Assembly: GCA_035653735.1 (NCBI GenBank) | Contig: DASRBG010000052.1 | Coordinates: 4,990 to 68,989 of the forward strand | Length of the DNA: 64,000 nt | Direction of reading: 5' to 3' | Source: Gemmataceae bacterium | Lineage (GTDB): Bacteria; Planctomycetota; Planctomycetia; Gemmatales; Gemmataceae | Position numbers and translations under genes: made by a program | Shown: positions 6,792 to 58,334 of the stretch, in pieces | Layout of the letters: each line of letters begins with the position of its first letter | Numbering within the stretch: position 1 is the first letter of the stretch | The notes under the pieces: generated by a model | What the model was told of the DNA's origin: nothing | The model's input: only the letters and a program-made list of their open reading frames with translations | The model's database searches: none

Positions 6792-6869
<78 letters not shown>

Positions 6870-20030: not shown

Positions 20031-20097
20031 AGGCGAGCGGGGCGTGTTCACGCCTCGTGAGTATCCGCTCGGGGCGCTTACGCGACCCCGCTCGCCT
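20031..20097. repeat. palindromic element family A, copy 2 (degenerate)
   Basis: A 12-bp perfect outer stem (AGGCGAGCGGGG / CCCCGCTCGCCT) encloses a degenerate interior. The right arm GGCGCTTACGCGACCCCGCTCGCC carries the last codons and the stop codon of 20078..20908. Confidence 0.8.
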
Positions 20098-20908: not shown

Positions 20909-20921
20909 AGGATAGAAGAGC

Positions 20922-21070: not shown

Positions 21071-21082
21071 GTTTGTTTCTCC

Positions 21083-25102: not shown

Positions 25103-25132
25103 GGTTATGACTCCCACTTGCGAAGGGATCTC

Positions 25133-25191
25133 GATTCGCGACGCTTCGCAGAAGCGTGCCAGGGCAACGCTTCTGCGAAGCATCGCGAATC
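25133..25191. repeat. palindromic element family G, copy 1
   Basis: Arms GATTCGCGACGCTTCGCAGAAGCGT (25133..25157) and 25167..25191 pair over 25 bp with one mismatch around a 9-nt loop. The element lies 31 nt after the stop of 23669..25102. Confidence 0.85.
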
Positions 25192-25238
25192 TACGATCTT
25201 CCCTCTACGTCTCGTATGTTCCACCGAAGGAGCTTGCG

Positions 25239-25825: not shown

Positions 25826-26110
25826 ATGCCGCACACGCGTAGCGCCAAGAAAAACCTGCGCAAGAGCGAGAAACGACGACTGCACAACCGGTCGGTCAAG
25901 AAGGACATCAAAACGCAGATCAAGAGTTTCCTGGAGGCGCTGAACGGTCCGGCCGATCAGCTCCAGAAGGAATACAATCTGGCCGCGAAGAAGCTGGACA
26001 AGGCAGCGGCCAAACGAATTGTCCATCCCAACTTGGCTGCACGCAAGAAATCGCAACTGGCTCGCCAGCTCCAGAAAAAGACCGCCGCATCAGCAAGCAA
26101 ACCGGCGTAA
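25826..26110 (+). CDS. rpsT: 30S ribosomal protein S20
   Basis: 94 aa. MPHTRSAKKNLRKSEKRRLHNRSVKKDIKTQIK is the canonical S20 N-terminus. The protein is basic throughout. Confidence 0.93.
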   Translation: MPHTRSAKKNLRKSEKRRLHNRSVKKDIKTQIKSFLEALNGPADQLQKEYNLAAKKLDKAAAKRIVHPNLAARKKSQLARQLQKKTAASASKPA

Positions 26111-26190
26111 TTACCACAGCAAGGGCAAGGGCGAGCGGGGTCGCGTTAGCGCCCCCGCTCGCCCTTGCCCTTGCTGTGGTAATTACGCCG
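26103..26190. repeat. 38-bp perfect palindrome (hybrid containing the family A core)
   Basis: 26103..26140 pairs perfectly with 26153..26190 around a 12-nt loop. It contains GGCGAGCGGGGTCGCGTTAGCGCC, identical to the left arm of copy A1. The stop codons of rpsT (26108..26110) and of the MMPL gene (26183..26185, reverse strand) lie in opposite arms. Confidence 0.9.
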
Positions 26191-28708
26191 CGAGATTGCG
26201 GCGCGTCGGCAACCGGCGCGATCCCTGTTTTTTCTTCGGGGCCATCTCTGCACGCCACATCCACAGCGCGAAGGGCGGCACCAAAAACGGCCGAACCACG
26301 AACGTATCGATCAACACGCCAAATGCCAAGGCGAAGCCGATCTGCACCAGCGTGCTCAATCCACCCAGCATCAAGGTAGCAAAGGTGCCGGCCATGATGA
26401 GACCGCACGAGGTGATCGTGCCGCCGGTGCGCGACAGAGCGCGGCGAATACCCTCGACAGGTCCATGGCGCAGGCGCTCCTCCAGGGCGCGTGTGATGAG
26501 CAGGATGTTATAATCCTCACCCACCGCGACGAGGATGGTGAACAAGAAGAAGGGCACGCGCCAATCGACCAGGCCCAGAGGCCGGCCATTCCACCAGTGT
26601 GCCAGCAGCGTCGTCGCCCCCAGGCTGGCGTAGTAACTGAACAATACCGATGCCAGAAGATAGAGGGCAAACCACGGCCGGCGCACCAGAGCAAGCAGGA
26701 TCAGGAAGATGCCGGCCAAGACCAAGGTGTTGATGCGGAGACGATCGCTCTCCGTGACCTGAGCCAAGTCGCGGGCATTCACGGTGATGCCGTGACATTC
26801 GGCCCGTACTTGCTCCGCTCCCGGATACTTTGGCAACTCCTCGCGCAGCCATAACTGAATCAATTCGAGCGTTCGGACGCTTTCCACATCGAAGGGATCG
26901 GAACGCGGCACCACATCCAGGCGCGTGACGAAGCGCGTCGGCCCTTCGGTTTTCGTGGCGGGCAAGCGGGCGACATAAAAATCACCGGCGGCGCGGTTGA
27001 TCTGATCGGTCAAGCCCTGGACGACGCTGCGCCACATGCTTTTGAGCAGAACATTCTCGTTCCCAGGCTCCGCCTGGGAAGCCACGGCACGTGAGGCTCC
27101 GCCTCGCGTCTTCTGCCCGATGGCTGTAAGCCGATCGCTAAACTCCGATACGGGACTGCCCAAGGGCTGAGTCAGGCTGCGCACCTCCGCGACGTTGTCG
27201 AGGTAGCAGAAACCCTGGCTCAAATGGGAGATGATGGCCCGACCTTGCGGCCCTTCCCAGTCGGTGTTCGATTCAAGCAACACGGTAATGGGGCCGACTT
27301 CGCCGGCGGTGAAGTGGCGCTGGATCGCTGCCAGACCGCGAATACTGTCGCTACTGGGTGACAACTCGCTAGTGGCCCGATAGTTTGGCCGCACCCCGAA
27401 CCCGATAAGGGCCAGCGGCATCAACGTGAGTAGGGCGGCCACACCAATGAGCAGAGGATGGGCAACGACATAACGGCTGATCCGTCCCCAGACTCCCTCA
27501 AGCCGCCATTCCCTGCCGGTGTTCAGTGAACTGCGGAGCGCGGGCGTCTCGCCCGCATAGTGTGAGTGAGAAAGTGGAGCGCGATCGGCGGTTGGCGGAC
27601 GGCGCGGCCAAAAGGCGATGGGACCGAGGATGCGGAGCAGCGCCGGGGTCAAAGTCAGTGAGGCGGCGAGAGCAACCGCGAGGCTGATAGCGATGGCAGG
27701 CCCGCCGCAGCGCACCTTGGCGAACTCAGCCAGTCCCATCAGTCCCAGACCGCAGATGACGGTTCCGGCACTGGCGGCCAAGGCGCCGCCGACACCGCCG
27801 ACGCTGCGTGCCAACGCCGCCGGCCAGTCTCGGCCGCGCGTCAGCTCCTCGCGATAACGGCTGATGAGGAACAAGCAATAATCGGTGCCGGCTCCGTAGA
27901 GCATGACCACGGCGAAAACCTGGCTGATGTTGACCATACAGAAACCGGGGATCAGCGTGCAGAGGGCCAACATCTTGAGGGCGACCCAAACGGAGACGGC
28001 GATGGTACACAGCGGAATGAGGGCCATCACCGGAGCGCGGTGGACCAAAAGGAGAATGACAATGACGAGAATAACGGTCGCCAATGTGGTGCTTTCCAGG
28101 CTGTTGGCACTGGCGGCGATGAGGTCGCGGCCGATGCCTGCTGGCCCGGTCAGATGAACACGAAGTTCTGAGTTCTGAGTTCTGGGTTCTGAGTTTTGGT
28201 TGGACTTGCTCGGAAGTCGGAACTCAGAACTCAGAACTCGACTAACGGCGTCCACTGTCGTTCGCGTCTGGACGGCCATGTAAGGCGTATTGAGCGAAAC
28301 CTGAATCAAGGTACATCGGCCGTCGCCGCTGACCAGTCGTTTGCCGAGGACCGGATCGCGATAGGTGCAAATGCGGGAGATTTGCAGGCTCGGATCTTCT
28401 TGGCGTAGTCGTTGCAAATCGGCGGCGAGGCCATCGACCCTGGCGAAGTCGGCCGGCGTCAAGGACGCATCGGCCCGCTCGACGGTCACGATGAGACGGC
28501 TGGCAAATACGTCTTGCGGAAAGGCCTGTTCGAGCAGTTGATGGCCCTTGACGCTGTCGCAGCGGGCGGGCAGGAAGCGAATGTCGTCATCGGCGGCGCG
28601 CTCGTCCCACTTGGGCGCCACGATGCTAACGACCCCGGCGACGATCACCCAGGCAAGACAGACCAACCACGGATGCGTCGCCGTTGCTCGTCCCAGGTAC
28701 TTAAACAT
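26183..28708 (-). CDS. MMPL family (RND superfamily) transporter
   Basis: 841-aa ORF. N-terminus MFKYLGRATATHPWLVCLAWVIVAGVV. It has two blocks of about six hydrophobic helices separated by large loops, with GTDYCLFLISRYREEL and GEDYNILLITRALEE segments typical of MMPL proteins. Confidence 0.9.
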   Translation of the reverse strand: MFKYLGRATATHPWLVCLAWVIVAGVVSIVAPKWDERAADDDIRFLPARCDSVKGHQLLEQAFPQDVFASRLIVTVERADASLTPADFARVDGLAADLQRLRQEDPSLQISRICTYRDPVLGKRLVSGDGRCTLIQVSLNTPYMAVQTRTTVDAVSRVLSSEFRLPSKSNQNSEPRTQNSELRVHLTGPAGIGRDLIAASANSLESTTLATVILVIVILLLVHRAPVMALIPLCTIAVSVWVALKMLALCTLIPGFCMVNISQVFAVVMLYGAGTDYCLFLISRYREELTRGRDWPAALARSVGGVGGALAASAGTVICGLGLMGLAEFAKVRCGGPAIAISLAVALAASLTLTPALLRILGPIAFWPRRPPTADRAPLSHSHYAGETPALRSSLNTGREWRLEGVWGRISRYVVAHPLLIGVAALLTLMPLALIGFGVRPNYRATSELSPSSDSIRGLAAIQRHFTAGEVGPITVLLESNTDWEGPQGRAIISHLSQGFCYLDNVAEVRSLTQPLGSPVSEFSDRLTAIGQKTRGGASRAVASQAEPGNENVLLKSMWRSVVQGLTDQINRAAGDFYVARLPATKTEGPTRFVTRLDVVPRSDPFDVESVRTLELIQLWLREELPKYPGAEQVRAECHGITVNARDLAQVTESDRLRINTLVLAGIFLILLALVRRPWFALYLLASVLFSYYASLGATTLLAHWWNGRPLGLVDWRVPFFLFTILVAVGEDYNILLITRALEERLRHGPVEGIRRALSRTGGTITSCGLIMAGTFATLMLGGLSTLVQIGFALAFGVLIDTFVVRPFLVPPFALWMWRAEMAPKKKQGSRRLPTRRNLAA
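27534..27556. repeat. solo unit of family I inside the MMPL CDS
   Basis: CGGAGCGCGGGCGTCTCGCCCGC is the exact reverse complement of 48166..48188 (an arm of the intergenic hairpin I1). It contains the mini-hairpin GCGGGCG-TCT-CGCCCGC and encodes ...AGETPALRS... in the inter-domain linker. Confidence 0.8.
28161..28240. repeat. palindromic element family D (GTTCTGA heptamer arrays) inside the MMPL CDS
   Basis: Five tandem GTTCTGA-like heptamers lie at 28165..28199. An 18-bp perfect stem joins 28164..28181 and 28221..28238. It is translated in frame as ...SEFRLPSKSNQNSEPRTQNSELR... in the first large loop of the transporter. Confidence 0.85.
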
Positions 28709-28749: not shown

Positions 28750-28865
28750 ACGATGTAATCTTCGGCGGAGCAAGGACACGGCCTGTAGGGAAAATGCAGG
28801 GACGACTTGAGAGACGGAGGATGTCCCGACTTCAGCAAGAGGGGAAAGGTGCGGTTGGCAAAGCA

Positions 28866-28952
28866 TATCCGAGCCGCGCACGCAGCGCAGCGGAGTAAGC
28901 GGTTTCTTGGGGCGACCGCTTACTCCGCTGCGCTGCGTGCGCGGCTCGGATA
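28866..28952. repeat. palindromic element family E, copy 1
   Basis: 37-bp perfect stem (28866..28902 / 28916..28952) with core CGAGCCGCGCACGCAGCGCAGCGGAGTAAGCGG and a 13-nt loop. It lies between the MMPL start and the tRNA, and is not downstream of any gene. Confidence 0.9.
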
Positions 28953-28999
28953 AGGCCGTTGCTGTCCATGACGCCGTTTGCTCTAATGGTTGAGAACAC

Positions 29000-29072
29000 G
29001 CCCCCGTAGCATAATGGACAATGCACTCGCCTTCTAAGCGAGCTTATGCAGGTTCGAGTCCTGCCGGGGGTA
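29000..29072 (+). tRNA. tRNA-Arg (anticodon TCT)
   Basis: Manual cloverleaf:
- Acceptor stem GCCCCCG/CGGGGGT (G1-U72 wobble).
- D arm GCAT-AATGGACA-ATGC.
- Anticodon arm CTCGC-CTTCTAA-GCGAG (anticodon TCT).
- Variable loop CTTAT.
- T arm GCAGG-TTCGAGT-CCTGC.
- Discriminator A. CCA is not encoded. Confidence 0.92.
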
Positions 29073-30475: not shown

Positions 30476-30494
30476 GCGTCTGCTTGCTTGGATC

Positions 30495-30569
30495 CGAGCC
30501 GCGCACGGAGCGTAGCGGAGTAAGCGGAAGCAGTGTCCGCTTACTCCGCTACGCTCCGTGCGCGGCTCG
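30495..30569. repeat. palindromic element family E, copy 2
   Basis: 34-bp perfect stem (30495..30528 / 30536..30569) with a 7-nt loop, between the convergent stops at 30475 and 30604. It differs from E1 at two arm positions, and both differences are mirrored in the other arm. Confidence 0.9.
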
Positions 30570-30603
30570 TACGAAAATGCCACTTCGTGGTGTGGAAAAT
30601 CGA

Positions 30604-32465: not shown

Positions 32466-32548
32466 CCGGTTTTCAGTTTTCGGTTTTCGGTTTTCGGAAC
32501 AGCAGCGTGGATCAGTTTTTGTTCCGAAAACCGAAAACTGAAAACCGG
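32466..32548. repeat. palindromic element family C, copy 2 (GGTTTTC heptamer arrays)
   Basis: It starts immediately after the aminotransferase stop codon (32463..32465). Inner stem 32481..32500 / 32521..32540; outer stem 32466..32476 / 32538..32548. The left arm carries one more heptamer than the right, and the loop is 20 nt. The RBS (AAGGAG) of the next gene follows the right arm directly. Confidence 0.9.
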
Positions 32549-32560
32549 AAGGAGTTCGCC

Positions 32561-33121
32561 TTGTTCGACTGGCTTTTTGAAGGCCGCACTGGCGTTTATG
32601 CCGTGCTCGCGGCACTGGTCGTGTTCTTGCTCGTGATCTGGTGGCAGACCCGCAAGCGTTGGCTTCTTCTAGGCGTTGCGGTCGCGGTGGCGCTGATTGG
32701 GTTGTATGCTCTGCTCGATAAAGTGGTCGAAACCGATCGCGAGCAGATTGTCCGGAAGGTCAATGAAATGGCCGCCGCCGTGAATTCGCGCAATCTTGAT
32801 GCACTCTTCGAGAACATCTCCGAGAACTTTCGTTCGCCTTTAGGCAAAGATAAGCAGCAATTCCGCGACTTCGTCGGGCACTATGTCAACGGAGGCATCG
32901 TCCAGAACGTCCGCGTTTGGGACATCGAATTTGACGATAGCCCATCGCGAGAAAATCCACCCGCACGGGTTTTCTTCCGAGCCAGGGCGGAGGAGAATGG
33001 ACGCGGCCTGTTCGCGGATTGCGAGACCATGTGGGGATTTGATTCTCAACACGGCTGGCGTCTGCGAAGCATTCGTCTTTTCAAGCCGCAGACGACCGAA
33101 GAGTGGCCGATTCAGTTGTAA
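32561..33121 (+). CDS. membrane-anchored hypothetical protein (possibly NTF2/SnoaL-like fold)
   Basis: TTG start at 32561, 6 nt after GGAAGGAG. It is in frame with the artefactual ORF 31616..33121, but coding-like codon usage starts only here. Two N-terminal hydrophobic helices are followed by a roughly 120-aa soluble domain. Confidence 0.55.
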   Translation: MFDWLFEGRTGVYAVLAALVVFLLVIWWQTRKRWLLLGVAVAVALIGLYALLDKVVETDREQIVRKVNEMAAAVNSRNLDALFENISENFRSPLGKDKQQFRDFVGHYVNGGIVQNVRVWDIEFDDSPSRENPPARVFFRARAEENGRGLFADCETMWGFDSQHGWRLRSIRLFKPQTTEEWPIQL

Positions 33122-33146
33122 TGACCGGGCCCGTATCTCCTTTCGT

Positions 33147-33169
33147 TTAGCGACGCTTCGCAGAAGCGT
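33147..33169. repeat. solo unit of family G
   Basis: TTAGCGACGCTTCGCAGAAGCGT matches the arms of G1/G2. The unit is itself a small hairpin (ACGCTTC-GCA-GAAGCGT). There is no inverted partner. Confidence 0.75.
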
Positions 33170-35939: not shown

Positions 35940-36021
35940 CTAATTTATTGGAGGCTTATCGCTTTTATCGACCGGCGGATCGAAATTGTGAGCGAAAAAT
36001 CCGGCACGGTGCTAGCGCTCC

Positions 36022-36096
36022 GAGCCGCGCACGCAGCGCAGCGGAGTAAGCGGCACAGGTAGCCCCGCTTACTCCGCATCGCTGCGTGCGCGGCTC
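36022..36096. repeat. palindromic element family E, copy 3
   Basis: 32-bp stem (36022..36053 / 36065..36096) with two adjacent uncompensated mismatches and an 11-nt loop. The right arm overlaps the stop codon (36095..36097) of the Omp85-like gene. Confidence 0.85.
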
Positions 36097-39000
36097 AGAA
36101 AGGATGCTCGATGCCGGCCCAGATTTGCATGGGTGCGGCGCTGTTGACGGTTTTGGCCGCGTCGAGACGGAAGATGGTGCGTTCCACGAAGGTGAACCAA
36201 GCCACGTCCAGGCGCAGACCCGCGCCGACGGCCTCCGTGATGCCGCCGACCGATTGGCCGCTCAGATACACGTCGCCCACATCGCAAAAGGTCGCCGCAT
36301 AAATGCCACGCACATTCAAGGCGTGGTCGAAGCAGCTCCAGTTCAGGTTGCGAATCACGGGGAAACGCCATTCTAAGCTGCCGACCCAGAGCGCGCTTCC
36401 CTGCCGTTGCGCCAGACTGAAGCCGCGGAACAGCTCGCTGCCGCCCAGGGCGAAATACTGAACATAGTTGGGCAAACCAAATGCCCCATAGGCGCGGAAC
36501 GCCAAAACGGTATCCGACAACCAGCCAAGACCGTCGGGCATGGCTTGCACGTAGGTCGCCTGTCCCAGCAATTGATGAGAGCCGCTGAGTCCGAATGTCT
36601 GATTTGGAGGCGTATTCGGCGTCTGCTCCCCCGGCAAAACGAGGCCGGCGGCATAACTGATGTCGGCCGAAAAACCGCCTTCGGGGTTCCAGTAGGGCGT
36701 CAGGTAATTGATGTGGTAGTGGGCGCCGCCGATACCTTGATGGCTAAAGCGCTCCGCCCCCGGCACGCTTTCGATCGCCGTCGGCAGCAGGTTGTCCTGG
36801 ATGGTGACAAAGCTCTCCACGTACTGAAACGGCGGCAGATACAGGCTATCGCCGTAATCGATGACGTAGCGCCCATAGGCGACCCAGCGGTTGGCCGGAG
36901 TCTCTCCGGCGTACGTTCCCGCGATGCGGCGCTCGTAGACGAAGCCGGCCTCCGTGTGCGGCCAGGGGAAATGATCGAAGGTAGCATCGACGCCTTCGAC
37001 GAAATCGCGGTAGTCGGTACGGTAGGCGGAATAAACGCCGCCCTCGAAAGCGGCCGTGCGGTAAGCGCCTGCCCGGACACCAAAGCGGGTCGAGCGCGTG
37101 AACCACGGATTGTCGTAGGTCGGCGCGAAGATCCACGGTCCGAGGATGAAATTCCAGCGGTCGTAAGCGTTGGTCAGGTCCGTCTCATCGAGAAACGTGT
37201 ACAGCGGCGTGGCGCGGAGGCGGAAGCGCGGTTTCCAGTAATTGTTCACCGGATTGCGATCGACCAGGACTTCATCGGGATCGACCGCGATTTGCGTCGG
37301 CCAGCATGGCAGCTCCACTTCGATTTTAACGCGATTTTTTTCCAGCGTCTCGACGCGGCCGGGTGGATCAGTGGTCTCGACCAGGCCGGCCTCCGGTGCG
37401 ACTGGGATGCGCACTTGAAAGCCCTCGCCACCGTCGAGGCAGAAGCCAACGACGGTGGGATCGTTGTAGTCTGCCTTTTGCTTCACGATGACCGTGACCT
37501 TGCAAGGAGTCTTGGGCCGGAACCAGCTGCGAATGGCCGCGCTGTAGCAGTGATAGGTCAATGGGAGCCGGCGCGAGCGACCGCTCGGCAGCGCCTGGAT
37601 GCTGACCTTCTCGATGCACCAGTCCGTCAGGCCCGCGCCATAAACCCAGTGATCGAAAAAGGTCTTCCACGATTTGTGCGTATATTCTTCGAGATCCCGT
37701 TGGAAATCGGCGACGCGCAGGATGCCGAAGGCGTGCCGTCGATAGACGAGGTACATGAAATCGAAGAATGCTTTCTCGCCCAACTCGTGCTCGATCATGC
37801 CGACGATTTTGCTGCCGCGTTCGTAGCACATGCTGTACAGATCGACGATATGTCCAAATTTTGGAATGTCTTGCACGGTCGGCGCCGCCTCCGCGCGAGC
37901 AAGGGTGCCGTATAAGTTGAAATAGCGGTAATCGTTGCGATGTACGTTGGGCAGCCATTTGAGACCTGTCGGGTAGCTTACAAGTGGGTCGTTGGCCCCG
38001 TACTTGGTTTTCATGAGGCGGTAGGCGAAATAGGTGGCCAGCCCCTCGTCCATCCAGGTTTCGCTGTAGCCGTGCGTGCCGACGACGTTGTACCACCATT
38101 GATGGCACGTGGCCTGAGAGACCAGGTAATCGACGAACGCCTTGGCCAGGTGCGGCATGTCGAAGATGCGCGAGTCGATCATGATCAGGCCGGCGCACTC
38201 GTTACTGTTCCAGCCGAAATGCGATTCGACGATGGTAAATTGCTTATACGGATAAGGACCGAACCACTGGCTATAAGCGGTCAGGGCGGCGCGTGCGCTT
38301 TCCACCATGAAACGAGCGTAATGTTCGTTCTTCGGCGCGGCCAGGCAGCGGATTTTGATGTGCCCGCACTGTCCCGTGAACTCTTGAAAGCGATCACTGC
38401 ACACGATGGCGAAGTCGCGAGCGAAACAGGGCGCGAACTCTAACTGCCGCCGTCCGTCAATAAGCGGATCGTCCCGCGCCACCTCGGCAGTGCAGGCGAC
38501 GTGTTGCCCGCGCGGCAAGGTAAGGCGCACCGTGAACAAACCCGCCTCGTTGAAGAATGGCTGATGCCAGCAGACATAGGGCGTCGGCTGCCAGCCCTTG
38601 TCGTCGTAAAATGCCAGTACCGGGAGCCAGTTTGTCAGGAAGGTGATCCCCTGCCAATGGCCCCAACGTCCACATTTCTCCGGTAGTTTCAAAACGAATT
38701 CCAGATCGAGCGTGATCGTCTCGCCTTGACGAACCGGCCGCGGCAGGGGAACGACCAGAGCGGAATCGTTTTTTTCGTCATAGTGGAAAGGCAAGCCCTC
38801 CTCGGCACCCCCAGCCGGCTGACGCCGGCCGTTCGTCGGAGCATCCAATAGCCGAGGCGGAGGCAGCTGCGAATCGATGGATTGATACGCCACTTTTCGC
38901 GGTCGTCCTAACTCTTCCGCATCCTCGACCCGCTCCAGCCTCACCAGACGCACCGTGCGGACATCGAGAGCGTGTCCCTCGAAATCGAGCGATTCGCTGG

Positions 39001-39298: not shown

Positions 39299-39398
39299 TG
39301 CCGTCCTGAGATACCGTCCGCAGGACCGAATCACGATAGGGCTAAGCGTGGTGGTCGCATACCATGCCAGCGGAGGATTTGTCCAGGGCAATCTCGGA

Positions 39399-39493
39399 AG
39401 AAAGTGAGGAGTGAGGAGTGAGGAATGAGGGGAAGAAGAGATGCCGGTATTTGTTTTTTCTCCTCACTCCTCACTCCTTACTCCTCACTTTCT
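39399..39493. repeat. palindromic element family F (GTGAGGA heptamer arrays)
   Basis: Stem 39399..39438 / 39454..39493 is 40 positions with one mismatch and a few G-T pairs. The left arm has three GTGAGGA units. It lies in the divergent region between 36095..39298 and 39608..42853. Confidence 0.85.
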
Positions 39494-39577
39494 ACTCCGC
39501 GTTGACGCGACAACGGCCAAACCGTACTATCCGCTCGCTTTTTCTCGTTGTCGCGCGCGGCGCGGCAAGGAGGGCAA

Positions 39578-39607
39578 ACTCAGGATTCAGGACTCAGAAC
39601 TCCGAAC
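39578..39607. repeat. one-armed heptamer array abutting a start codon
   Basis: ACTCAGG ATTCAGG ACTCAGA ACTCCGA AC ends at the nucleotide before the ATG at 39608. The unit is the complement of the family D heptamer. Confidence 0.7.
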
Positions 39608-42600
39608 ATGACCTGGCGGAAATGGCTTGTCCGAAGTCTGGTCTTCTCCGTTTTGGGTCTGGCGATCCTCGTCGCACTGCTCTACGAGGCGTGGACCAAT
39701 CCCGCCGCCGTTCGCCGTCAGGTGCTTGCCAAGCTCCACAAGATCTTCATCGGCGCAACGGTCAATATCGATACCGCCCGGCTGCGCCTGCTCGGCGGCA
39801 TTGGCGTCCGCGATCTACGCATGGCGCGGCGCGACGAACTTGACCGCGGCGATTTCCTCTACGTTCCTTCCGCCGTCATCTATCACGACAAGGAGCACCT
39901 GCTCGATGGCACGCTCGGCGTTCGCAAGATCGAGCTGGATCGGCCGCGCGTCCGCGTCGTGTGCGAACGGGATGGGCGGATCAACCTCTCCGGCCTGCTT
40001 GCCCCCCCCGATCTCAACGAACGAGTGCCAACCCTAATTGTCCGCCGAGGCGTTCTTGTCATTGAGGACCGGCGAGGCCCCTCTCCCACGGTGCTGTTGG
40101 AAATCAAGGATCTCAACCTGACCGTCGTCAACGATCCGCTGTCCACCCTTGTCATCAAAGGGAACGGCCAGAGCGATGCCCTCGGCGCGGTGCGGATTGA
40201 TGCTCGCTTTTATCGTCCTAGCGATGCGGCCAGCGCGGTCGTGGAATTGCCCGAAGTGCCGGTTGGTCCGCCGTTGGTGCAGCGGTTCGTCGGTTTGTGT
40301 CCCGATTGCGCCCGCCACATCCGGGAACTGAGCGGTACCGCTCGCGTTCAGGCGACGTTGGTCTACCGGCCCGGGGCCGGCGCCGCCGAGCCGTTCACCT
40401 ACGATGTCAACTTCGAGTTGAACAAAGGGGAATGGCGACACGAATGTTTGCCCTCGCCGCTTGAGAACATTCACGCCAAGCTGCGCTGCATCAATGGCCG
40501 AATCCCTCACGCCGAGTTGCAGTCGCGGCTCGATGGGGCGAACGTCAAGTTGGATCTGTGGGACGTGGTGTTGCGAGAGCAGGCTCCCAACTGCATCCAG
40601 GACATGGTCGCCAAACTGGAGGCGAAGGTTGAGCATCTCACGGTGACGCCGAGGGTTTTCGAGCACTTGCCGCCGGTGTGCCAGAAGATTCAAAAGACCT
40701 ATAATCCGGCCGGCCCCGTTAGCTTGACCTATCAATTCTATCGCCCTGATGCGGAACGCTGGGAAAAACACTGGACCATAGAACCCGAAGGCATGACGGC
40801 AGAGTTCGAGGACTTTCGCTATCCCATTGAAGGCGTGACCGGCCGCGTCACTCTGGATCAGTCCAGCGGCTGCGACGACTTGATCCAGGTCGATCTGTCC
40901 GGCCGAGGTGCCGATCGTCCCGTCAAGGTAAACGGCTTCATCAAGGGAGACAAGACCAGCGAGGTCGATCTGGTCATCGCCGCGGACGATGTGCCGATCG
41001 ATCACCAGCTGATGAAAGCTTTGCCGGAAAAGAGCCGCGAATTGGCGCGCACGTTCCTACCCTCGGACAGCCGGGAGCTAGGCTTGTCGGAGCAACCCCT
41101 AGGACAGGTGCAGCCGGCGGGACTGGCGAACATCAAGGTGTTCGTTCGCCGCACACGTGGCCAGGAGGCTTTCGCCAACCGTTATCTCATCGCTTTTCAC
41201 GATTCCTCCCTGAAATACGACCTCTTCCCGTATCCGCTGGAGAAGGTGACGGGCGTTCTGGACATTCAACCGGATCACTGGGAATGCCGCGATTTCCATG
41301 GCAGCCATAAGGGGGGCGAAATTTGGGTGGAGGGATCGAACGACGGCCGGAGCGCGGGCGTCCCGCCCGCATCGAGCAGGAGCGCGGCCGAAACGCCCGC
41401 ACCGAGCGGTCGAGACGCCCGCGCTCCGAAGCATGAATGCGTGCAGGTCGCTATCCGCGGCAAGGACATTCTCCTCGATCCGGAGTTCGAGCAAGCATTG
41501 TCGCCGGAGAAGGTGCCGGGGCGGGCCGCGCTGCGCAACGCCTGGGCGATGCTGGCCCTGCGAGGCCGGCTCAGCTTCGAGTCGATCGTCCTCGATCGAC
41601 CGGATCAGCCGCAGGACATTGATGTCGCCGTGGACATCAAAGGCTGCTCCATGCAGCCGGACTTCTTTCGCTACGCCATGACCGACGTCAGCGCGGGCAT
41701 CCGCTATAAGCAGGGGCGCGTCTACGTCAAGGATGTCAGCGCCAAGCACGGCTCCGGCAAGCTGGGATTGAAGGAAGCCACGATCGTCCTCAAACCGTCT
41801 AGTGGTTTCACGGCCTGGTTCACGGACATCACCGGCGAAGATCTGTTGCCCGATGAGGAATTTCTACGAGCCTTGCACCCGGCCTTGAGGCACGGATTGG
41901 AGCCTTTGCAGATCCGCAAACCGCTCCAAGTCAAAACGAAGCTGGTCCTGGATGCGCCGACGGTCCCGGGCGAACCGATGAAAATCTGGTGGGACGGCGG
42001 CGCCGCCTTGCACAAGCAGCTCTTTCAGACAGGCGTGGAAGTGAGCGACGTGGACGGCATCATCTGGTGCGACGGCCATCACAATGGCCGGCAATTCGAT
42101 TACATCAAGGGACATATCGTTCTCGATCGCGCCACGATCCTCGGCCAACCGTTCACCAAATTGCAGGGCCGCATCAAGGTCGCCCCCGAAACGCCGGACA
42201 TTTTGTCGCTATACGATCTCTCGGCCAACGTATTCGGCGGCTTTGTCGGCGGCGAAGCGCGCTTCTTGTTCAGCTCGCCGTTGCGTTACGAGGTAAATCT
42301 CCATGCCCTGAACGTGCAGCTGGAACAGTTCGGCAAACACAATCAGCTCGGCGCCGACGCTCAGCTTCAGGGACCGGCTAGCGCCGGTCTCTACCTGACC
42401 GGCGAAGGCACCGACCTAAGCGGACTCAAGGGCAACGGCCGAGTCGATGTGGCTCGCGGCAAGATGTATCGGCTGCCGTTGCTGCTCGATCTGCTCAAGG
42501 CGTTCGGTCTGCGCATGCCGGACCGAACGGCCTTCGAGCAGGCCCACATGGTTTTCGGCATAGAGGGTCCGCAAATGCGCATTCACAGCCTGGACCTGTA

Positions 42601-42853
42601 CGGCAATGCCATCAGTCTGCGTGGCCAGGGCACCCTCAATATCGTTGATGGCAGCAATCTCAATCTCGATTTCAGTGCCGACCCGGGCCGCATGCCGCAG
42701 TTGCTGCCGCCGGTCATCAGCGATCTCTCACAAGCGGTGAGCGATCAGCTCTTCAAAATCAAGCTGCGCGGCAAACTCAGTTCGCCGCACTTCGAGAAGG
42801 AGTTTGTGCCCGGCGTGGTCGATCCGATTAAGCGGGTGTTTGGGAAATCGTAA
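39608..42853 (+). CDS. AsmA-family / TamB-like large envelope protein
   Basis: MTWRKWLVRSLVFSVLGLAILVALLY is an N-terminal anchor, followed by about 1000 aa of beta-rich sequence. The C-terminus (LDLYGNAISLRGQGTLNI...LNLDFSADP...LFKIKLRGKLSSPHF) is like AsmA/TamB C-terminal regions. The ORF opens at 39548, but the anchor-proximal ATG is at 39608. Confidence 0.75.
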   Translation: MTWRKWLVRSLVFSVLGLAILVALLYEAWTNPAAVRRQVLAKLHKIFIGATVNIDTARLRLLGGIGVRDLRMARRDELDRGDFLYVPSAVIYHDKEHLLDGTLGVRKIELDRPRVRVVCERDGRINLSGLLAPPDLNERVPTLIVRRGVLVIEDRRGPSPTVLLEIKDLNLTVVNDPLSTLVIKGNGQSDALGAVRIDARFYRPSDAASAVVELPEVPVGPPLVQRFVGLCPDCARHIRELSGTARVQATLVYRPGAGAAEPFTYDVNFELNKGEWRHECLPSPLENIHAKLRCINGRIPHAELQSRLDGANVKLDLWDVVLREQAPNCIQDMVAKLEAKVEHLTVTPRVFEHLPPVCQKIQKTYNPAGPVSLTYQFYRPDAERWEKHWTIEPEGMTAEFEDFRYPIEGVTGRVTLDQSSGCDDLIQVDLSGRGADRPVKVNGFIKGDKTSEVDLVIAADDVPIDHQLMKALPEKSRELARTFLPSDSRELGLSEQPLGQVQPAGLANIKVFVRRTRGQEAFANRYLIAFHDSSLKYDLFPYPLEKVTGVLDIQPDHWECRDFHGSHKGGEIWVEGSNDGRSAGVPPASSRSAAETPAPSGRDARAPKHECVQVAIRGKDILLDPEFEQALSPEKVPGRAALRNAWAMLALRGRLSFESIVLDRPDQPQDIDVAVDIKGCSMQPDFFRYAMTDVSAGIRYKQGRVYVKDVSAKHGSGKLGLKEATIVLKPSSGFTAWFTDITGEDLLPDEEFLRALHPALRHGLEPLQIRKPLQVKTKLVLDAPTVPGEPMKIWWDGGAALHKQLFQTGVEVSDVDGIIWCDGHHNGRQFDYIKGHIVLDRATILGQPFTKLQGRIKVAPETPDILSLYDLSANVFGGFVGGEARFLFSSPLRYEVNLHALNVQLEQFGKHNQLGADAQLQGPASAGLYLTGEGTDLSGLKGNGRVDVARGKMYRLPLLLDLLKAFGLRMPDRTAFEQAHMVFGIEGPQMRIHSLDLYGNAISLRGQGTLNIVDGSNLNLDFSADPGRMPQLLPPVISDLSQAVSDQLFKIKLRGKLSSPHFEKEFVPGVVDPIKRVFGKS
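41348..41428. repeat. family I palindromic element inside the TamB-like CDS (exactly 27 codons)
   Basis: 15-bp perfect stem CGGAGCGCGGGCGTC (41348..41362) / GACGCCCGCGCTCCG (41414..41428). Both boundaries fall on codon boundaries of the CDS that starts at 39608. It is translated as RSAGVPPASSRSAAETPAPSGRDARAP. Confidence 0.8.
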
Positions 42854-42936: not shown

Positions 42937-44130
42937 GTGTTTGGCTCGATCCTGCAACGGATGATCCTATGGGAACTCACCAAAGTGTTCCTCATGTCAC
43001 TGGTAGGGATCACCGGCATCCTGCTCATGGCCGGCATCATCGCCGAGGCGTCGCAGCAAGGTCTCGGCCCGGCGCAGATTCTGGCCGCCATCCCCCTTCT
43101 TGTGCCCAGCACGTTGCCTTACACCATCCCAGCTACTACGCTGTTCGCTACCTGCGTCGTCTACGGACGATTGGCCGCCGACAATGAAATCCTTGCGATC
43201 AAATCCGCCGGCATCAACGCCATCCGCGTGGTCCGTCCCGGCATTTTTCTCGGCCTGGCCATGAGCACCGCCACCATGGGTTTGTACTACCGCATCATCC
43301 CCTACACGCACCACCTGCTCCGCGCCATGGTCTTCAATGACGCTCAGGAACTCTTGTATTCCCTGCTGAAAAAACACCATGAAATCAAACAGAACTCTTT
43401 TCCCTACCAGATCTTCGTTAAGGGAGTAAGAGACAGGAAGTTGATCGAACCGATCTTCAAGCGCAAGGACGCGCATGGGGCGATTGACTGGGTGGCTCAT
43501 GCCCGCGAGGCCGAGCTACAAGTGAGGCCCTCCCAGGGCCAGGTGGATGTGCTGGTGAAGCATTGCGTTGTATGGGGCGAAAACGACTCCAGCGGCATCT
43601 TGGAGGACAAACCGCTTACCGTCGAGCTGCCCAAAGATTTTGGCAAATTGAACGAACGCCGGCCGCGCGATCTGACCTGGCAAGAGATTCTCGATCGCCG
43701 CGTCGAGTTAGAAAAGAAGATCGAGGAAATACAAGCAAAGACTTCCGTGGATACGGCACGCTTGCTGCTTATCCAAGCGCCGGAGAACCTTCCTCTCTTT
43801 TTGAAATCCTGCAAGGATCAGATGGACAAAGCTCAACAAGAAATCGTCGCACTGAATGTCGAATTGCAGATGCGCCCGGCGCTTAGCTTGGGCTGTCTGT
43901 TCTTCATTCTGGTTGGCTGTCCGGTCGGCATTTGGTTTAGCCGCAGCGATTACCTCAGCGCCTTCATCACGTGTTTCTTGCCGATCGTGTTCATTTACTA
44001 TCCGTTGATGCTTTGCGGCACCGGCATGGCCAAGGAAGGACGCTACAACATGATCCCGCTCGTCTGGGGCGCGGACGCGGTCGTCGGCGTGATGGGCGTG
44101 GTGTTGTTCTGGCGATTACTGAGGAATTAA
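42937..44130 (+). CDS. LptF/LptG family permease (YjgP/YjgQ)
   Basis: ILQRMILWELTKVFLMSLVGITGILLMAGIIAE... is the typical LptF/G N-terminus. Three N-terminal and three C-terminal helices flank a periplasmic domain. The GTG at 42937 lies 5 nt after GGAGG; the ORF opens at 42913. Confidence 0.85.
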   Translation: MFGSILQRMILWELTKVFLMSLVGITGILLMAGIIAEASQQGLGPAQILAAIPLLVPSTLPYTIPATTLFATCVVYGRLAADNEILAIKSAGINAIRVVRPGIFLGLAMSTATMGLYYRIIPYTHHLLRAMVFNDAQELLYSLLKKHHEIKQNSFPYQIFVKGVRDRKLIEPIFKRKDAHGAIDWVAHAREAELQVRPSQGQVDVLVKHCVVWGENDSSGILEDKPLTVELPKDFGKLNERRPRDLTWQEILDRRVELEKKIEEIQAKTSVDTARLLLIQAPENLPLFLKSCKDQMDKAQQEIVALNVELQMRPALSLGCLFFILVGCPVGIWFSRSDYLSAFITCFLPIVFIYYPLMLCGTGMAKEGRYNMIPLVWGADAVVGVMGVVLFWRLLRN

Positions 44131-44132
44131 CC

Positions 44133-44215
44133 ACGAAAAAGGACAAAAGGGACTAAAAGGACCAAAAAGAATGGTCTTCTTTTTGGTCCTTTTAGTCCCT
44201 TTTGTCCTTTTTCGT
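44133..44215. repeat. 39-bp perfect palindrome (family H)
   Basis: 44133..44171 (ACGAAAAAGGACAAAAGGGACTAAAAGGACCAAAAAGAA) pairs perfectly with 44177..44215 around a 5-nt loop. It lies between the convergent stops of lptF/G (44130) and the sigma factor gene (44224). Confidence 0.9.
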
Positions 44216-44223
44216 CGTTTCTT

Positions 44224-45828
44224 CTATTCCGTCTCGGCGAATTCGGCGAGGCGTTGACTGCGGAGCGGCTGACGCAGCTTGAGCAAACCGCGCGCTTCGA
44301 TCTGGCGGATGCGTTCGCGCGTGATTCCGTATGCTCGTGCCACTTCCTCTAGCGTTCGCGGCTGGCCGTCGCGCAAACCGAAGCGCAACTCGATCACTTC
44401 GCGTTCCCGCGGCGTCAGCGAACGCAATACCTCGGCGATACGCTCGCGCAGCAAATGCTGATCGACCTGCTGGCCGGGATTGGCAGCGTCGGGGTCATCG
44501 AGGAAATCTTCCAAAGCGCGTTCGCCATCGCCGCCGAGCGGTTCGTGCAAGCTAACCGGATGCCGCGATACGACGCGGAGCGATTGCGTCTCTTCGGGCG
44601 TCACGCCGAGGACGGCGGCGATCTCTTCCACGGTCGGCTCGCGGCCCTGCTGGATGGATAGTTCGCCGCGCACCCGCTCGACCGCCGCCAGCGTGCCGAC
44701 TTGATGGCAAGGCACACGGATCGTGCGAGCGTGGTCGGCCAGGGCGCGAGTGATGCCCTGACGAATCCACCAGGTCGCGTAGGTGCCGAACTTGTATCCC
44801 AGTCGATGCTCGTACTTATCCACCGCCCGCATGAGGCCGCGATTGCCTTCCTGAATGAGATCCGAGAACGGCAGGCCGCGGCTGCGATAGCGTTTGGCGA
44901 TCGACACGACCAGACGCAAGTTACCTTCAGCCAATTCGCGTCGCGCTTTTTGATATTCAATCCGGCGATGTTCCAGCACCCGCACCAGCTTGGCGAGATC
45001 CTCGGAGGAGGAACGCACTTCGTGAGTGAGGTCGCGCAGCTGCTTGGCCGCCTTGGTACGGCGTTCGCGGTCGGCGGACGAGCGATGGCCGGCGTCCTTC
45101 TCCCGTTCCAGCTGAGCCATCTGCCGGGAAAAAGCTCGCAGCTCATCGACCCAGCGATCAAGGAGATCGATGCGCGGCGACAATTCCTCCGCCAGACGCA
45201 CGGACTTGCGGAGTCGCCGCCAGAGATCGCGTCGCGTTCGCTGGTGGCTGACCGAAGAGCCCGCCCGTAGATGGCGGAAGTCGGTGTCGGCAGCGTCGAT
45301 GAGTTTTCGCAGCGTTCGCAGGTTGTGGGGCATGCGCTGCAAGATGCGTTCACGGCTTAGCCCCAGGGTCGTCACCACGTCGATGGTGGGATCGAGGGCC
45401 AGCTGGCCGGCGCGAACGCGCTCGAAGGTGTCCACGATGCAGCCCAAGGTGCGCCAGTTCATCATGGCAGCGTGGCGATAACGGCGGCGTTTTAGCTCCA
45501 GCCGTTCGGCCAAGGCCAATTCCTGATCGCGACTCAAGAGTGGGATTGCGCCCATCTGCCGGAGATAGAGTCCGAGGGCGTCATCCGGCGCGTGCGCATC
45601 TTCTTCCTCTAGTTCGTTAGCGGCCGCCGTTTCTTCAGCGGCCGCCTCCTCTAACTCCTCGGCATCTTCCGCGGGGAAGGAATCGTCCGGAAGTTCGCTC
45701 CACGGCGTCTCGCGCCGCGCGGGGATCTCCTCCGCCTCGGCTTCGTGCACAAGGGGTTCGGGTACGGCCAACGCCGGCTCGGAAGCCGCGTTTTTACCTG
45801 TCCGCTTGGTTGTCCGTCTCATGACCAT
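44224..45828 (-). CDS. rpoD: primary-type sigma-70 factor (RpoD/SigA-like)
   Basis: 534 aa with an acidic N-terminal region. [21 protein letters not shown] (region 1.2), [60 protein letters not shown] (region 2), [28 protein letters not shown] (region 4.2). Confidence 0.9.
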
Positions 45829-46765: not shown

Positions 46766-48109
46766 ATGTACATCCCGCTGCGAAGGTTTCTCGGAATCGT
46801 TTTAGCCGTCGTGGGCCTCTTTGGCCCGCTGACCGCGGAGGGTCAGGCTCAGATTCGGCCTCCCGGCTTGGGCTTGAGCCTTAATCCCTACGTCAACCCG
46901 TTTATGGCCAGCGCGCTGGTTGGACCGCAGAACGTTCTTGCCGCGTCCGGCATGACACATCCTCTCGCTGCTCTGGCGGGGGCTGGTTGGGGATGGAATT
47001 CCGGATTGCGCTTCGGCGGCCTCGCCGGTATGAATAATGGGATCATGGCCGCGAACAATGCGCTGGGTTATGGCAACCTCTGGAATGGAGGCTTTGGACC
47101 CGGGATGGGCGCCTTCGGCGGCGGGCTTGCGAATAACCTGTTGGCCGGCGCCGCTATGGGTGCCGGTTATGGCTACGGCTTTGGTTTGGGAAACACGCAA
47201 TGGATGATGAACCCCTATCAAGGATATCTCCAAGGTGCGGCTGACATCACCCGATCCCAGGCCGAGTATTATCAGACCATCCAACAGGCGAAGCTGACCC
47301 GTCAGGAAGCAATCCGTTCCTCCCTGGAGACGCGGCGGGCCATGATCGAGGAGGCCGAATGGGAACGGGCCCACATGCCTGACCCGGAGAAGATTCGCCA
47401 GGAAGCCATCCAACGCGAACTTACCCGCGCCCGCGTCAGCCCGCCGCTCAACGATGTTTGGTCCGCCCGCGCCCTGAACGCGCTGCTCCGCCATCTCATT
47501 ACGCTGCAAGGTGATGGCGTGCGCGGCCCCCGGATTCCGCTCAACGAGGACATCGTCAATCACGTCAACGTCAAGCCCGGTGATTCCGCCGGCAATGTTG
47601 GCATGCTCAAGAAAGAGGGCGATCTGGAGTGGCCGGAGCCGCTTCTCGGCGGGGCCTTTAAGGAAGGCCGCGAACGCATCAATTCTTTGATGCACACGGC
47701 CCACCGGAGCGTGGCTGCCGGCAAAAATCCTGACGCCGCCACACTGAACGACTTGCAGAGCAAATTCCGCGAACTGCGCGATACGCTCGACAACAACGTG
47801 TCCGAGCTGAAGCCCGATGAATACATCGAGGCGAAGAACTTTTTGCGTCAAATTGGAAACACCATCACGGCGTTGAAGGATCCAAGCATCGGCAAACAAT
47901 TCAACGACGATTTGAAGCCGAAGGCCACGAGCGTCCACGATTTGGTGAAGCACATGCGCGAGAAGGGGCTGATTTTCGCGCCGGCCGTGACGGACCAGGA
48001 TCAGGCGGCGTATGTCTCGCTCTATCACGCCCTCGCCGCTTTCGATGCCGGCATGGAACGGAACGCCAGCGGCAGCCGAGGGAACCTGGAAAACGCCGAC
48101 AACAAGTAA
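46766..48109 (+). CDS. secreted hypothetical protein with Gly/aromatic-rich N-terminal region
   Basis: 447-aa ORF with a signal peptide (FLGIVLAVVGLFGPLTAEGQA). A low-complexity GxGxG/GYGYGFGLG region is followed by a helical, charged C-terminal domain. The antisense ORF 46802..48028 looks like a shadow. Confidence 0.65.
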   Translation: MYIPLRRFLGIVLAVVGLFGPLTAEGQAQIRPPGLGLSLNPYVNPFMASALVGPQNVLAASGMTHPLAALAGAGWGWNSGLRFGGLAGMNNGIMAANNALGYGNLWNGGFGPGMGAFGGGLANNLLAGAAMGAGYGYGFGLGNTQWMMNPYQGYLQGAADITRSQAEYYQTIQQAKLTRQEAIRSSLETRRAMIEEAEWERAHMPDPEKIRQEAIQRELTRARVSPPLNDVWSARALNALLRHLITLQGDGVRGPRIPLNEDIVNHVNVKPGDSAGNVGMLKKEGDLEWPEPLLGGAFKEGRERINSLMHTAHRSVAAGKNPDAATLNDLQSKFRELRDTLDNNVSELKPDEYIEAKNFLRQIGNTITALKDPSIGKQFNDDLKPKATSVHDLVKHMREKGLIFAPAVTDQDQAAYVSLYHALAAFDAGMERNASGSRGNLENADNK

Positions 48110-48126: not shown

Positions 48127-48197
48127 CCGAAGTGCCGGAGCGCGGGCATCTCGCTCGCAGACCAGGCGGGCGAGACGCCCGCGCTCCGGCACTTCGG
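48127..48197. repeat. palindromic element family I, copy 1
   Basis: 21-bp perfect stem (48127..48147 / 48177..48197) with a 29-nt loop. Each arm carries the 23-24-nt unit CGGAGCGCGGGC(G/A)TCTCGC(C/T)CGC, which is itself a mini-hairpin. It lies between the convergent stops at 48109 and 48218. Confidence 0.9.
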
Positions 48198-48217: not shown

Positions 48218-48991
48218 TCAGCGTTGTCGGTAGCGATCCAACGCGCTCTTGCAGTAAGACAGCAACAAGCCCAGATCGATCAATTCCTCTTCAACGCGGT
48301 CGGCGCTTTCCGGATCGCCAAGATCGATTTGCAAGGACCGCGCTGCCTCAAGCACCAACATCTCACCGAATAGTTCCCGTCCGCGATGGGCCAGCTGGCG
48401 AACGCCGTCTGCCGTGAACGGACGGCCCAATTGTGCGGACAGTAATTCCGCCATTTGTGCCGAGCGCAGGTCTGGATGCTGCTCCTGCAAACGCAGCAAA
48501 CAGGTATAGGGCCGGCCGCTCTTTTTCTCGTTTTCCTCCAACCGCTGCCAGGCCCAGTTAATCAGCTCCTGCCGCCAACACTGCAAAAATCGCGCGTCCT
48601 CCTCGGTCTCTGCCGGATCGATTTTCGCCGCTTCACTGCGCGAGGCCAGAGCTTCGCGTTGCTTGTTTTCGCGCTGTTGCGCACGGTGGTGGTCGGCAAC
48701 CATGTGCCGCAAAACCGTCTTGAGATAATCACGAAACCGGCCGCGCCGCGGGTCGGCCCGTTGGAGAAAGCGATCGACTTCCAGAACGCGCACGGCGAAG
48801 TTGCTGTAGACCTGCCCGGCGGCGTGTTCATCGCGTAGCTCGGCCCGCAGATAGCGCAGCACCGCCTCATGATAGCGCAACAATAGAGCGCTTCGCGCCG
48901 CCGCGGCCACATCGCCCTCCTGCTGCGCGGCGCGAAAAATCACCGACCATTGCGTCGCCATATTAGCCAGATCGATCTCTTCCATACTCAA
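48218..48991 (-). CDS. sigma-70 family (ECF-like) sigma factor
   Basis: 257 aa. MATQWSVIFRAAQQ...LLLRYHEAVLRYLRA...FRDYLKTVLRHMVADHHR resembles the N-terminal/region 2 organisation of ECF sigma factors that are often paired with Ser/Thr kinases in planctomycetes (from memory). The C-terminal region is less clear. Confidence 0.65.
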   Translation of the reverse strand: MSMEEIDLANMATQWSVIFRAAQQEGDVAAAARSALLLRYHEAVLRYLRAELRDEHAAGQVYSNFAVRVLEVDRFLQRADPRRGRFRDYLKTVLRHMVADHHRAQQRENKQREALASRSEAAKIDPAETEEDARFLQCWRQELINWAWQRLEENEKKSGRPYTCLLRLQEQHPDLRSAQMAELLSAQLGRPFTADGVRQLAHRGRELFGEMLVLEAARSLQIDLGDPESADRVEEELIDLGLLLSYCKSALDRYRQR

Positions 48992-57121: not shown

Positions 57122-57146
57122 GAGCGCGATCTCCTCTATCGGCAGC

Positions 57147-57196
57147 GTTTTCGTTTTAGCCGAAGCGCGGGCGTCCCGCCCGCTAAAACGAAAGCG
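57147..57196. repeat. family I unit embedded in a short hairpin
   Basis: AGCGCGGGCGTCCCGCCCGC (57164..57183) is flanked by TTCGTTTTAGC / GCTAAAACGAA. It lies in the 77-nt gap between the DUF58 stop (57199) and the BatA-like start (57121). Confidence 0.75.
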
Positions 57197-58128: not shown

Positions 58129-58257
58129 GAGTTTTCCTGATCGCCGCGTCCGCGGAAATTCTCCTCCTCCGGTTTCAATGTATCATACCAATCCAGCGTC
58201 CCGAACTCGAGTCGGGCCGACCGGAATTACGGGAACGTTACTGGCGAAAACAATTGG

Positions 58258-58315
58258 TTAGCGACGCTTCGTAGAAGCGTCGAGCGGCGACGACGCTTCT
58301 ACGAAGCGTCGCTAA
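58258..58315. repeat. palindromic element family G, copy 2
   Basis: 25-bp perfect stem TTAGCGACGCTTCGTAGAAGCGTCG (58258..58282) / 58291..58315 with an 8-nt loop. It lies between the stop of 58335..59927 and the start of 57199..58128. Confidence 0.9.
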
Positions 58316-58334
58316 TCGAAACTAGCGGCCTTCC

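Follow-up and report, generated by a model that had tools for sequence, protein, structure and literature searches.

How does a palindrome from a repeat family found mostly between genes come to fill a whole number of codons inside an intact, conserved gene? The question is raised by an 81-nt element in the gene for an AsmA-like envelope protein, within a 64,000-nt stretch of a Gemmataceae bacterium genome (assembly GCA_035653735.1, contig DASRBG010000052.1, positions 4,990 to 68,989 of the forward strand), which we call the window and whose own coordinates we use. We conclude that the element is probably a cluster of repetitive extragenic palindromic (REP) units that sits in frame in a permissive loop, comparable to the REP doublets forming hairpins (REPINs) and bacterial interspersed mosaic elements (BIMEs) of other bacteria, and that it survives there through selection and not through the way in which it was inserted. 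The host gene and the parts of the element are the following.

39608..42853, plus strand: gene for an AsmA-like, repeating-beta-groove envelope protein of 1081 amino acids; an intact open reading frame (ORF) that hosts the 81-nt element
41348..41428, plus strand: 81-nt REP cluster (REPIN/BIME-like), codons 581-607, coding for a loop predicted to be disordered
41348..41370, plus strand: REP unit 1, CGGAGC-GCGGGCG-TCC-CGCCCGC (tag, stem, loop, stem)
41378..41400, plus strand: REP unit 2, degenerate and in direct orientation, AGGAGCGCGGCCGAAACGCCCGC, lying within the spacer of the palindrome
41406..41428, minus strand: REP unit 3, inverted, CGGAGCGCGGGCGTCTCGACCGC on the minus strand

An earlier note, made from the sequence alone, had given the stem, the length of 81 nt and the codon phase, all of which proved exact. 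The left arm (41348..41362) is CGGAGCGCGGGCGTC and the right arm (41414..41428) its reverse complement; they pair perfectly over 15 nt and reach 23 nt at 91% complementarity, with pairing that ends at 41347/41429. From position 1 of codon 581 to position 3 of codon 607, the element encodes the 27 residues RSAGVPPASSRSAAETPAPSGRDARAP; the ORF spans 39548..42853, and the ATG at 39608, from which the codons are counted, agrees with the conserved N terminus of the orthologues, MxWRKWLVRS. The element is more than a plain stem: it comprises three REP units, in the order direct, degenerate direct and inverted, each with its own 7-bp hairpin. The degenerate unit 2 (41378..41400) agrees with the unit in 18 of its 23 nt, a score equalled by 2 of 20000 spacer shuffles. 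The predicted fold of the element reaches -57.8 kcal/mol as RNA (z = -5.0) and -35.9 kcal/mol as DNA (z = -4.7), and in neither case did any of 200 shuffles do as well.

The element is foreign to the gene in which it lies, as judged from a GC fraction at second codon positions of 0.89, against 0.42 for the gene, together with the lack of a counterpart in orthologues. By codon position its GC content is 0.74/0.89/0.78, against 0.66/0.42/0.76 for the gene, and overall it is 80% against 61%. None of the six frames of the element contains a stop codon. The DNA of the host gene is identical across three independent public assemblies, reached through its cluster mate P0121, which excludes an assembly artefact, and no polymorphic or empty allele occurs among them.

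Orthologues of the host gene in Gemmataceae align over the full length at 40-80% identity; some are named 'AsmA-like C-terminal region-containing protein' by NCBI and carry precomputed matches to PF05359/PF05170, and the Pfam family DUF748 scores 33 bits on the host protein itself, below its cutoff of 50. The next gene encodes an LptF_LptG protein (157 bits, Pfam). In the AlphaFold2 model of the host protein (mean pLDDT 84), a helix at the N terminus (residues 2-46) is followed by nearly all beta structure. Foldseek searches of this model against the PDB returned weak matches to the ApoB100 beta-belt and to the bridge-like lipid-transfer protein LPD-3, with TM scores below 0.15, too low to place the protein firmly by structure.

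The same model shows where the element falls. Residues 582-607, between the predicted strands 570-581 and 609-622, form the sole internal segment with pLDDT below 50, and the repeat-coded residues 581-607 nearly coincide with this putatively disordered turn. An alignment of 66 orthologues places the element between the conserved blocks GGEIWVNGCSF and ECVQVAIRGKDILLD, where its 27 residues are without counterpart in 64 of 65 orthologues and where the turn is hypervariable, ranging from 8 to about 75 residues. About 20 orthologues at 70-76% identity have a short turn (…NGCSFRVDxGxG-PKRECV), many carry about 22 extra, unrelated residues and some carry 42-65. Relative to the short allele the window gene has a net gain of 20 residues and lacks about 6 adjacent ones; the common +22 allele exceeds it by 2 residues. 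In the window gene the surviving copy is in frame and gives rise to an Ala/Pro/Ser/Arg/Gly-rich loop, disordered by prediction, at a place where length and sequence vary freely.

Two expectations of the earlier note are answered in part by these alignments. Its 'clean, phase-preserving insertion' holds as to phase, which is kept in an intact, conserved gene, and not as to a clean 27-residue indel, given the hypervariable turn. Orthologues without this repeat family do have a stretch about as long in that position, an equivalence that the note had set against insertion, but its sequence is unrelated and in several of them it is another palindromic repeat.

These other repeats are themselves in frame. 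The turn of one orthologue (L004) holds a different palindrome with a perfect 17-bp stem and an extragenic copy at L004:4739-4795; that of another (L052) holds a (GGAGACA)n/(TGTCTCC)n hairpin of 65 residues; and that of a third (L053) holds two tandem units of about 57 nt with relatives upstream of the gene in L004, so that the inserts of L004 and L053 both have extragenic copies elsewhere. Among 11 orthologous genes with DNA, palindromes with arms of at least 14 nt lie in the turn in four (window, L004, L052 and L006).

A second permissive turn was seen at window residues ~305-311, between strands 298-308 and 311-321, where other orthologues carry REP-like palindromes: L002 (gene nt 922-982, locus about 3922-3982), P0021, P0023, P0024 and P0025, reading …GETPVPP…. 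The insertion in P0023 reaches up to about 60 residues.

That the segment derives from a dispersed, otherwise mostly extragenic repeat family, as the earlier note had proposed, is supported by further copies in the window and in many genomes. The unit is found at four sites in the window, two intergenic and two intragenic, the three besides the element being these.

48127..48197, no strand assigned: intergenic REP doublet of the same family as the 81-nt element, with units at 48136-48158 (plus) and 48166-48188 (minus)
27534..27556, plus strand: single REP unit in an MMPL transporter gene, in frame with this minus-strand gene, reading AGETPAL in an inter-domain linker
57161..57183, plus strand: single REP unit, CGAAGC variant, in the intergenic hairpin 57146-57196

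The doublet lies between the convergent genes 46766-48109 (plus) and 48218-48991 (minus), and the claim that the same unit builds its hairpin is right: the 15-mer arm recurs at 48136-48150 with 1 mismatch and at 48174-48188 exactly. With 2 mismatches or fewer allowed, 6 sites in the window match the 15-mer where 1.04 would be expected, a count reached in 0 of 100 shuffles. Non-coding sequence makes up roughly 17% of the window and holds 14 of its 16 strong palindromes; the other two, both intragenic, measure 81 nt and 75 nt. The MMPL protein matches Pfam MMPL (5.7e-97) in two stretches, and the unit at 27534 sits in the linker that joins the two halves; its segment is missing from 35 MMPL orthologues, and across 36 aligned MMPL orthologues all repeat-derived segments are lineage-specific. 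The same gene (26186-28708, minus strand) also carries in frame a 75-nt hairpin of tandem heptamers, (GAGTTCT)n and its complement, at 28164-28238, which reads NQNSEPRTQNSELR and is common to one orthologue only, P0255.

We scanned one genome per GTDB species for the 21-mer core GAGCGCGGGCGTCYCGNCCGC (loci L055-L174) and found it exactly in at least 120 stretches from many phyla. Among the matches listed are Planctomycetota, Verrucomicrobiota, Acidobacteriota, Chloroflexota, Alpha-, Beta- and Gammaproteobacteria, Desulfobacterota, Sumerlaeota and Armatimonadota, and the copies in them are mostly inverted pairs whose spacers are variable and unrelated in sequence. The base 5' of the search pattern was unconstrained, yet it is G in 96% of 152 copies, which reveals a GGAG tag one base from the stem. 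The unit consists of this tag, a 7-bp stem GCGGGCG/CGCCCGC and a 3-nt TCY loop. The loci contain 180 instances of the head GGAGC ahead of a perfect 7-bp stem with a 3-4-nt loop; their stems come in 15 compensating versions, their loops are TCC/TCT, and five control heads give 1-5 instances. The way in which the loci were gathered over-represents the main stem in this count. We take the unit to be a REP and the 81-nt element a GGAG-tagged, REPIN/BIME-like cluster. The same REP lies in frame in genes for an autotransporter (L137), a CHAD protein (L098), a PMT_2/TPR protein (L062) and an NHL protein (L095). A gathering-threshold scan of the whole window with Rfam returned tRNA only and no REP-unit family; permissive scans of both hairpins gave sub-threshold look-alikes of miRNA precursors, generic hairpin noise; and a literature text search for variants of the unit returned no relevant paper.

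Clustering of ORFs over these loci brought out one family that lies between or beside REP units in four phyla (L091, L136, L150 and L154). Its genes encode proteins of about 200 amino acids with mutual identities of 41-52%, all four of which match PF01797 Y1_Tnp; the two scanned against the NCBIfam model REP_Tyr_transpos (L150 and L154) reach 82 bits against a cutoff of 80. They belong to a very large protein family of REP-associated tyrosine transposases (RAYTs), for which JGI uses the name 'REP element-mobilizing transposase RayT'.

Two other settings of the unit were noted in these genomes. In a Terriglobia metagenome-assembled genome (L068, 5920-7999; DATJYK010000447.1), a gene for a winged-helix and Ser/Thr-kinase protein contains two doublets of this family in local frames, one in an inter-domain linker and the other in the activation loop, immediately past the DFG motif. 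In the assembly a third repeat (…SFEFRVSNF…) breaks this gene into two overlapping frames, which points to either a pseudogene or an assembly error. In nine loci of Acidobacteriota / 'Versatilivorator' (L057, L084, L085, L114, L125, L138, L156, L160 and L166), REP units form the inner ends of ~250-nt elements whose inverted repeats are extended (tcatgggaggaagcccacccGG-GAGCGC…) and whose interior is conserved (…cgctcagtttccctgcgatg…), in appearance a composite mobile element based on the same REP.

What, then, explains the exact multiple of three? The 53 doublets of the family in the fetched loci are 46-268 nt long, with lengths modulo 3 distributed as 21/22/10. Measured from tag to tag, the intergenic doublet of the window is 51 nt, a multiple of three, and the intragenic one is 79 nt, which is not; the full hairpin 48127-48197 is 71 nt. 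As doublet lengths show no preference modulo 3, the insertion process does not deliver multiples of three, and a length of 3n in an intact ORF is guaranteed by ascertainment. Selection for in-frame survivors, one of two explanations offered by the earlier note, fits these lengths, the stop-free repeat and the permissive turn.

We therefore favour a simple course of events, of which the early steps are conjectural. The unit is of the single-strand hairpin type that RAYTs (HUH-Y1 enzymes related to IS200 TnpA) bind and cleave. The element or a precursor would have been placed by RAYT-type single-strand cut-and-paste, or else by recombination between REP copies. The landing site would have been the DNA for the turn between two beta strands of a presumably periplasm-spanning AsmA-like protein. 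Alleles that shifted the frame or disturbed the fold would then have been lost, and the exact multiple of three would stem from purifying selection on insertions in an essential-looking gene. A repeat without stops and a turn predicted to be disordered made survival easy. We infer a mobilising RAYT in the source genome, as we infer the junctions and the age of the event; no function of the hairpin or the peptide is needed.

Several observations weigh against this account. A tblastn search found no RAYT gene in the 64-kb window or the examined Gemmataceae loci, and among the best 120 RAYT relatives, mostly unnamed, no named match is labelled Gemmataceae. The family of the 81-nt element carries GGAG in place of the canonical GT[AG]G tag. 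None of the orthologues offers an empty site close enough in identity to fix the insertion junctions, and as the flanks differ, with about 6 residues missing, the 'insertion' could equally be a replacement by recombination. Finally, P0002, the orthologue closest to the window gene (79% identity), has …DGRSAGAPAA… at the junction; one loop-less unit would yield its RSAGAPA, a hint of an old event common to both genes, and perfect 15-bp arms are not what plain neutral decay of an old event predicts. The junctions themselves show no flanking direct repeat (GGC|CGG…CCG|AAG at 41348-41428). The right one, GCT CCG AAG, resembles the GGA CCG AAG of short-allele orthologues, and the last codon, CCG, may thus be native, in which case the inserted DNA would be 78 nt rather than 81 nt.

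The same orthologues invite a second explanation, that the DNA at this turn is a targeted landing pad, attracting palindromic repeats of several families by an insertion bias and not by tolerance alone. At least four repeat families have entered the same turn in different lineages, the four palindrome-bearing genes among 11 and the tandem units of L053 point the same way, and REPs are known targets of other mobile DNA (PMC3733652). Candidates for the attracting feature are a native hairpin over the R-E-C-V codons downstream, an earlier palindrome, and a native CCGAAGCGCGAAT that resembles the CCGGAGCGCGGGC of the repeat. The conserved R-E-C-V codons 3' of the insertion site (window 41441-41456) form a small native palindrome, GCACGCGATTGCGTGC in L006 (1311-1342), adjoining the site, and are a possible target feature for a hairpin-seeking insertion. 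However, palindromes gather in the second turn (~305-311) as well, the linkers of the MMPL protein behave likewise, so that tolerance of any disordered turn suffices without targeting, and the insertion junctions are not resolvable. We regard targeting as unlikely, if worth keeping in view.

Retention of the hairpin for a function, through an mRNA structure of about -58 kcal/mol that pauses the ribosome or RNA polymerase between the halves of the protein, or through a role of the loop peptide, seems improbable to us. It would account for 15-bp arms that are perfect despite the decayed-looking unit at the same junction in the 79%-identical orthologue, and REPs elsewhere influence mRNA stability and termination, according to background cited in PMC6006769 and PMC3733652. 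Against it, the segment is missing from or swapped for unrelated sequence in nearly all orthologues, many of them at 70-76% identity, the peptide is disordered by prediction, and the perfect arms are also explicable by a recent event or by gene conversion with other copies.

A length-constrained mechanism delivering units of 3n bases, the other explanation raised by the earlier note, would suit the 81 and 75 nt of the two strong intragenic palindromes of the window, but it is contradicted by the doublet lengths given above, by the 79 nt from tag to tag of the intragenic doublet against a full intergenic hairpin of 71 nt, by spacers unrelated in sequence and by the ascertainment inherent in an intact ORF; we consider it very improbable. 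Least credible of all is that the segment has no tie to mobile repeats and belongs to the protein as a native low-complexity linker, made palindromic by chance or by an inverted duplication in place. Many orthologues do have an Ala/Pro/Gly/Arg-rich loop and GC-rich DNA readily forms hairpins, but the window has exact units of 15 to 23 nt at three further sites, many phyla have them next to RAYT genes, the fold has a z score of about -5, and the composition by codon position is foreign to the gene.

Candidates of other classes were rejected as well. A CRISPR repeat, an integron attC site and a sigma-54 promoter do not agree with inverted pairs with variable spacers, the lack of R'/R'' boxes and the lack of TGGCAC-N5-TTGC. 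A miniature inverted-repeat transposable element (MITE) of the DDE type does not agree with the lack of a target-site duplication or with inverted parts that are complete REP hairpins also occurring singly.

The window is rich in hairpin repeats beyond this family, with at least five distinct families in all. Long intergenic hairpins with arms of tandem 7-nt repeats lie at 5037-5172, 6788-6873, 20919-21073, 32471-32550, 39397-39495 and 44124-44224, and their heptamer varies by locus (CACAGAG, TCGGTTT, GAGGAGT, AAAGGAC…); the (GGAGACA)n hairpin in the AsmA-like loop of L052 is of the same heptamer-built kind. A second palindrome family has three intergenic copies (28864-28954, 30488-30576 and 36019-36099) with arms …CGAGCCGCGCACGCAGCGCAGCGGAGTAAGCGG, in which GTAAGCG presumably recalls IS66-type ends; two copies of this family flank a tRNA gene at 29000-29072 (Rfam RF00005, 67.7 bits). 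Two further palindrome families, with the cores CGACGCTTCGYAGAAGCGTCG and GGCGAGCGGGGTCGCG, are found at 25131-25193, 58254-58319 and 33058-33167, and at 2412-2476, 26103-26190 and 20031-20097.

The locus is a structurally mapped case of repeat DNA turned protein sequence. With other repeat families in the same turn of sister lineages, it amounts to a natural experiment on the insertion-tolerant positions of a bridge-like lipid-transport protein. It also raises an annotation issue, as RSAGVPPA, AGETPAL, GRDARAP and similar peptides of GC-rich genomes represent REP read-through and not domains. A by-product, one REP sequence across many phyla beside RAYT genes, may merit more attention than the main finding; it was less expected, given that the literature describes REPs as species-specific, and so was the occurrence of several unrelated repeat families in one turn. 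On a speculative note, the GGAG-tagged REP, with the same 21 nt across phyla, might be one ancient or horizontally spreading REP-RAYT system with frozen DNA recognition, and, linked to this, the repeats and heptamer hairpins of Gemmataceae might routinely supply new loop sequence to envelope proteins, with particular beta-hairpin turns as recurrent landing pads through an insertion bias beyond tolerance; we put this forward as a doubtful but conceivable extension.

How does the element compare with known systems? Small non-autonomous repeats such as MITEs now and then survive in frame within genes. MITEs carry the terminal inverted repeats of a DDE transposon and are flanked by target-site duplications, whereas 41348-41428 has neither.

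Palindromic repeats in frame within genes were described earlier as Rickettsia palindromic elements (RPEs; Ogata et al. 2000, cited in PMC3733652). RPEs resemble the present case in that the genes are functional and the peptides do not disturb the fold, but RPE-1 is 106-150 bp long, AT-rich, confined to Rickettsia and without a known dedicated transposase, whereas here the DNA is GC-rich, the units are 23 nt and the family adjoins RAYT genes. Judged from the Gemmataceae taxon and a GC content of 80%, homology to RPEs is unlikely and the resemblance is one of behaviour only.

The likeness to REPIN/RAYT systems and BIMEs (Bertels and Rainey 2011, PMC3116915; Nunvar 2010, PMC2817692; Quentin 2018, PMC6006769) lies in the anatomy of a tetranucleotide tag and a GC hairpin. 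A canonical REP has a stem of 7-20 bp, a loop of 2-5 nt and GT[AG]G at 0-2 nt from the foot of the hairpin, and GCGGGCG-TCY-CGCCCGC, with a 7-bp stem and a 3-nt loop, falls within the hairpin limits. As in REPINs, inverted doublets form long hairpins (41348-41428 and 48127-48197 in the window, 53 in the fetched loci), and as in a REPtron, a single-copy HUH-Y1 gene is flanked by units, seen here in four other genomes of four phyla. REPs are, by contrast, described as species-specific, whereas the present 21-mer is identical in many phyla, the copy at 41348..41428 is intragenic and the tag is GGAG. Quentin (2018) also reports RAYT subclasses 2.6 and 3 with non-GTAG feet, and Table S1 of that study lists REP bodies closely similar to the present one, GCTGG-CGCGGGCG-TCC-CGCCCGTG beside RAYT subclass 2.6 and GTAGT-GCGGGCA-TCT-TGCCCGC beside subclass 2.7 (PMC6006769).

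Closest in kind are the intragenic REPs of Di Nocera, De Gregorio and Rocco (2013; PMC3733652), who described in-frame REPs whose dimers or groups code for 20-30 residues, with many intragenic cases in Opitutus terrae and Rickettsia conorii and with Opitutus terrae and Rhodopirellula baltica as examples from the PVC group; such insertions may spare protein activity in flexible linkers or loops (Quentin 2018, PMC6006769). With RPEs and these REPs already known, the 81-nt element is a further example of an intragenic REP. It shares with the REPs of Di Nocera et al. the short tagged stem-loops, which are mostly extragenic, frequently form inverted dimers and turn up in frame in genes unrelated to one another. 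The present unit does not occur in the text or supplements of that paper (PMC3733652), its tag is GGAG where theirs is GTAG or CGTC, and its host is a member of the Gemmataceae. A further difference is that here one and the same protein turn holds several unrelated repeat families in sister lineages.

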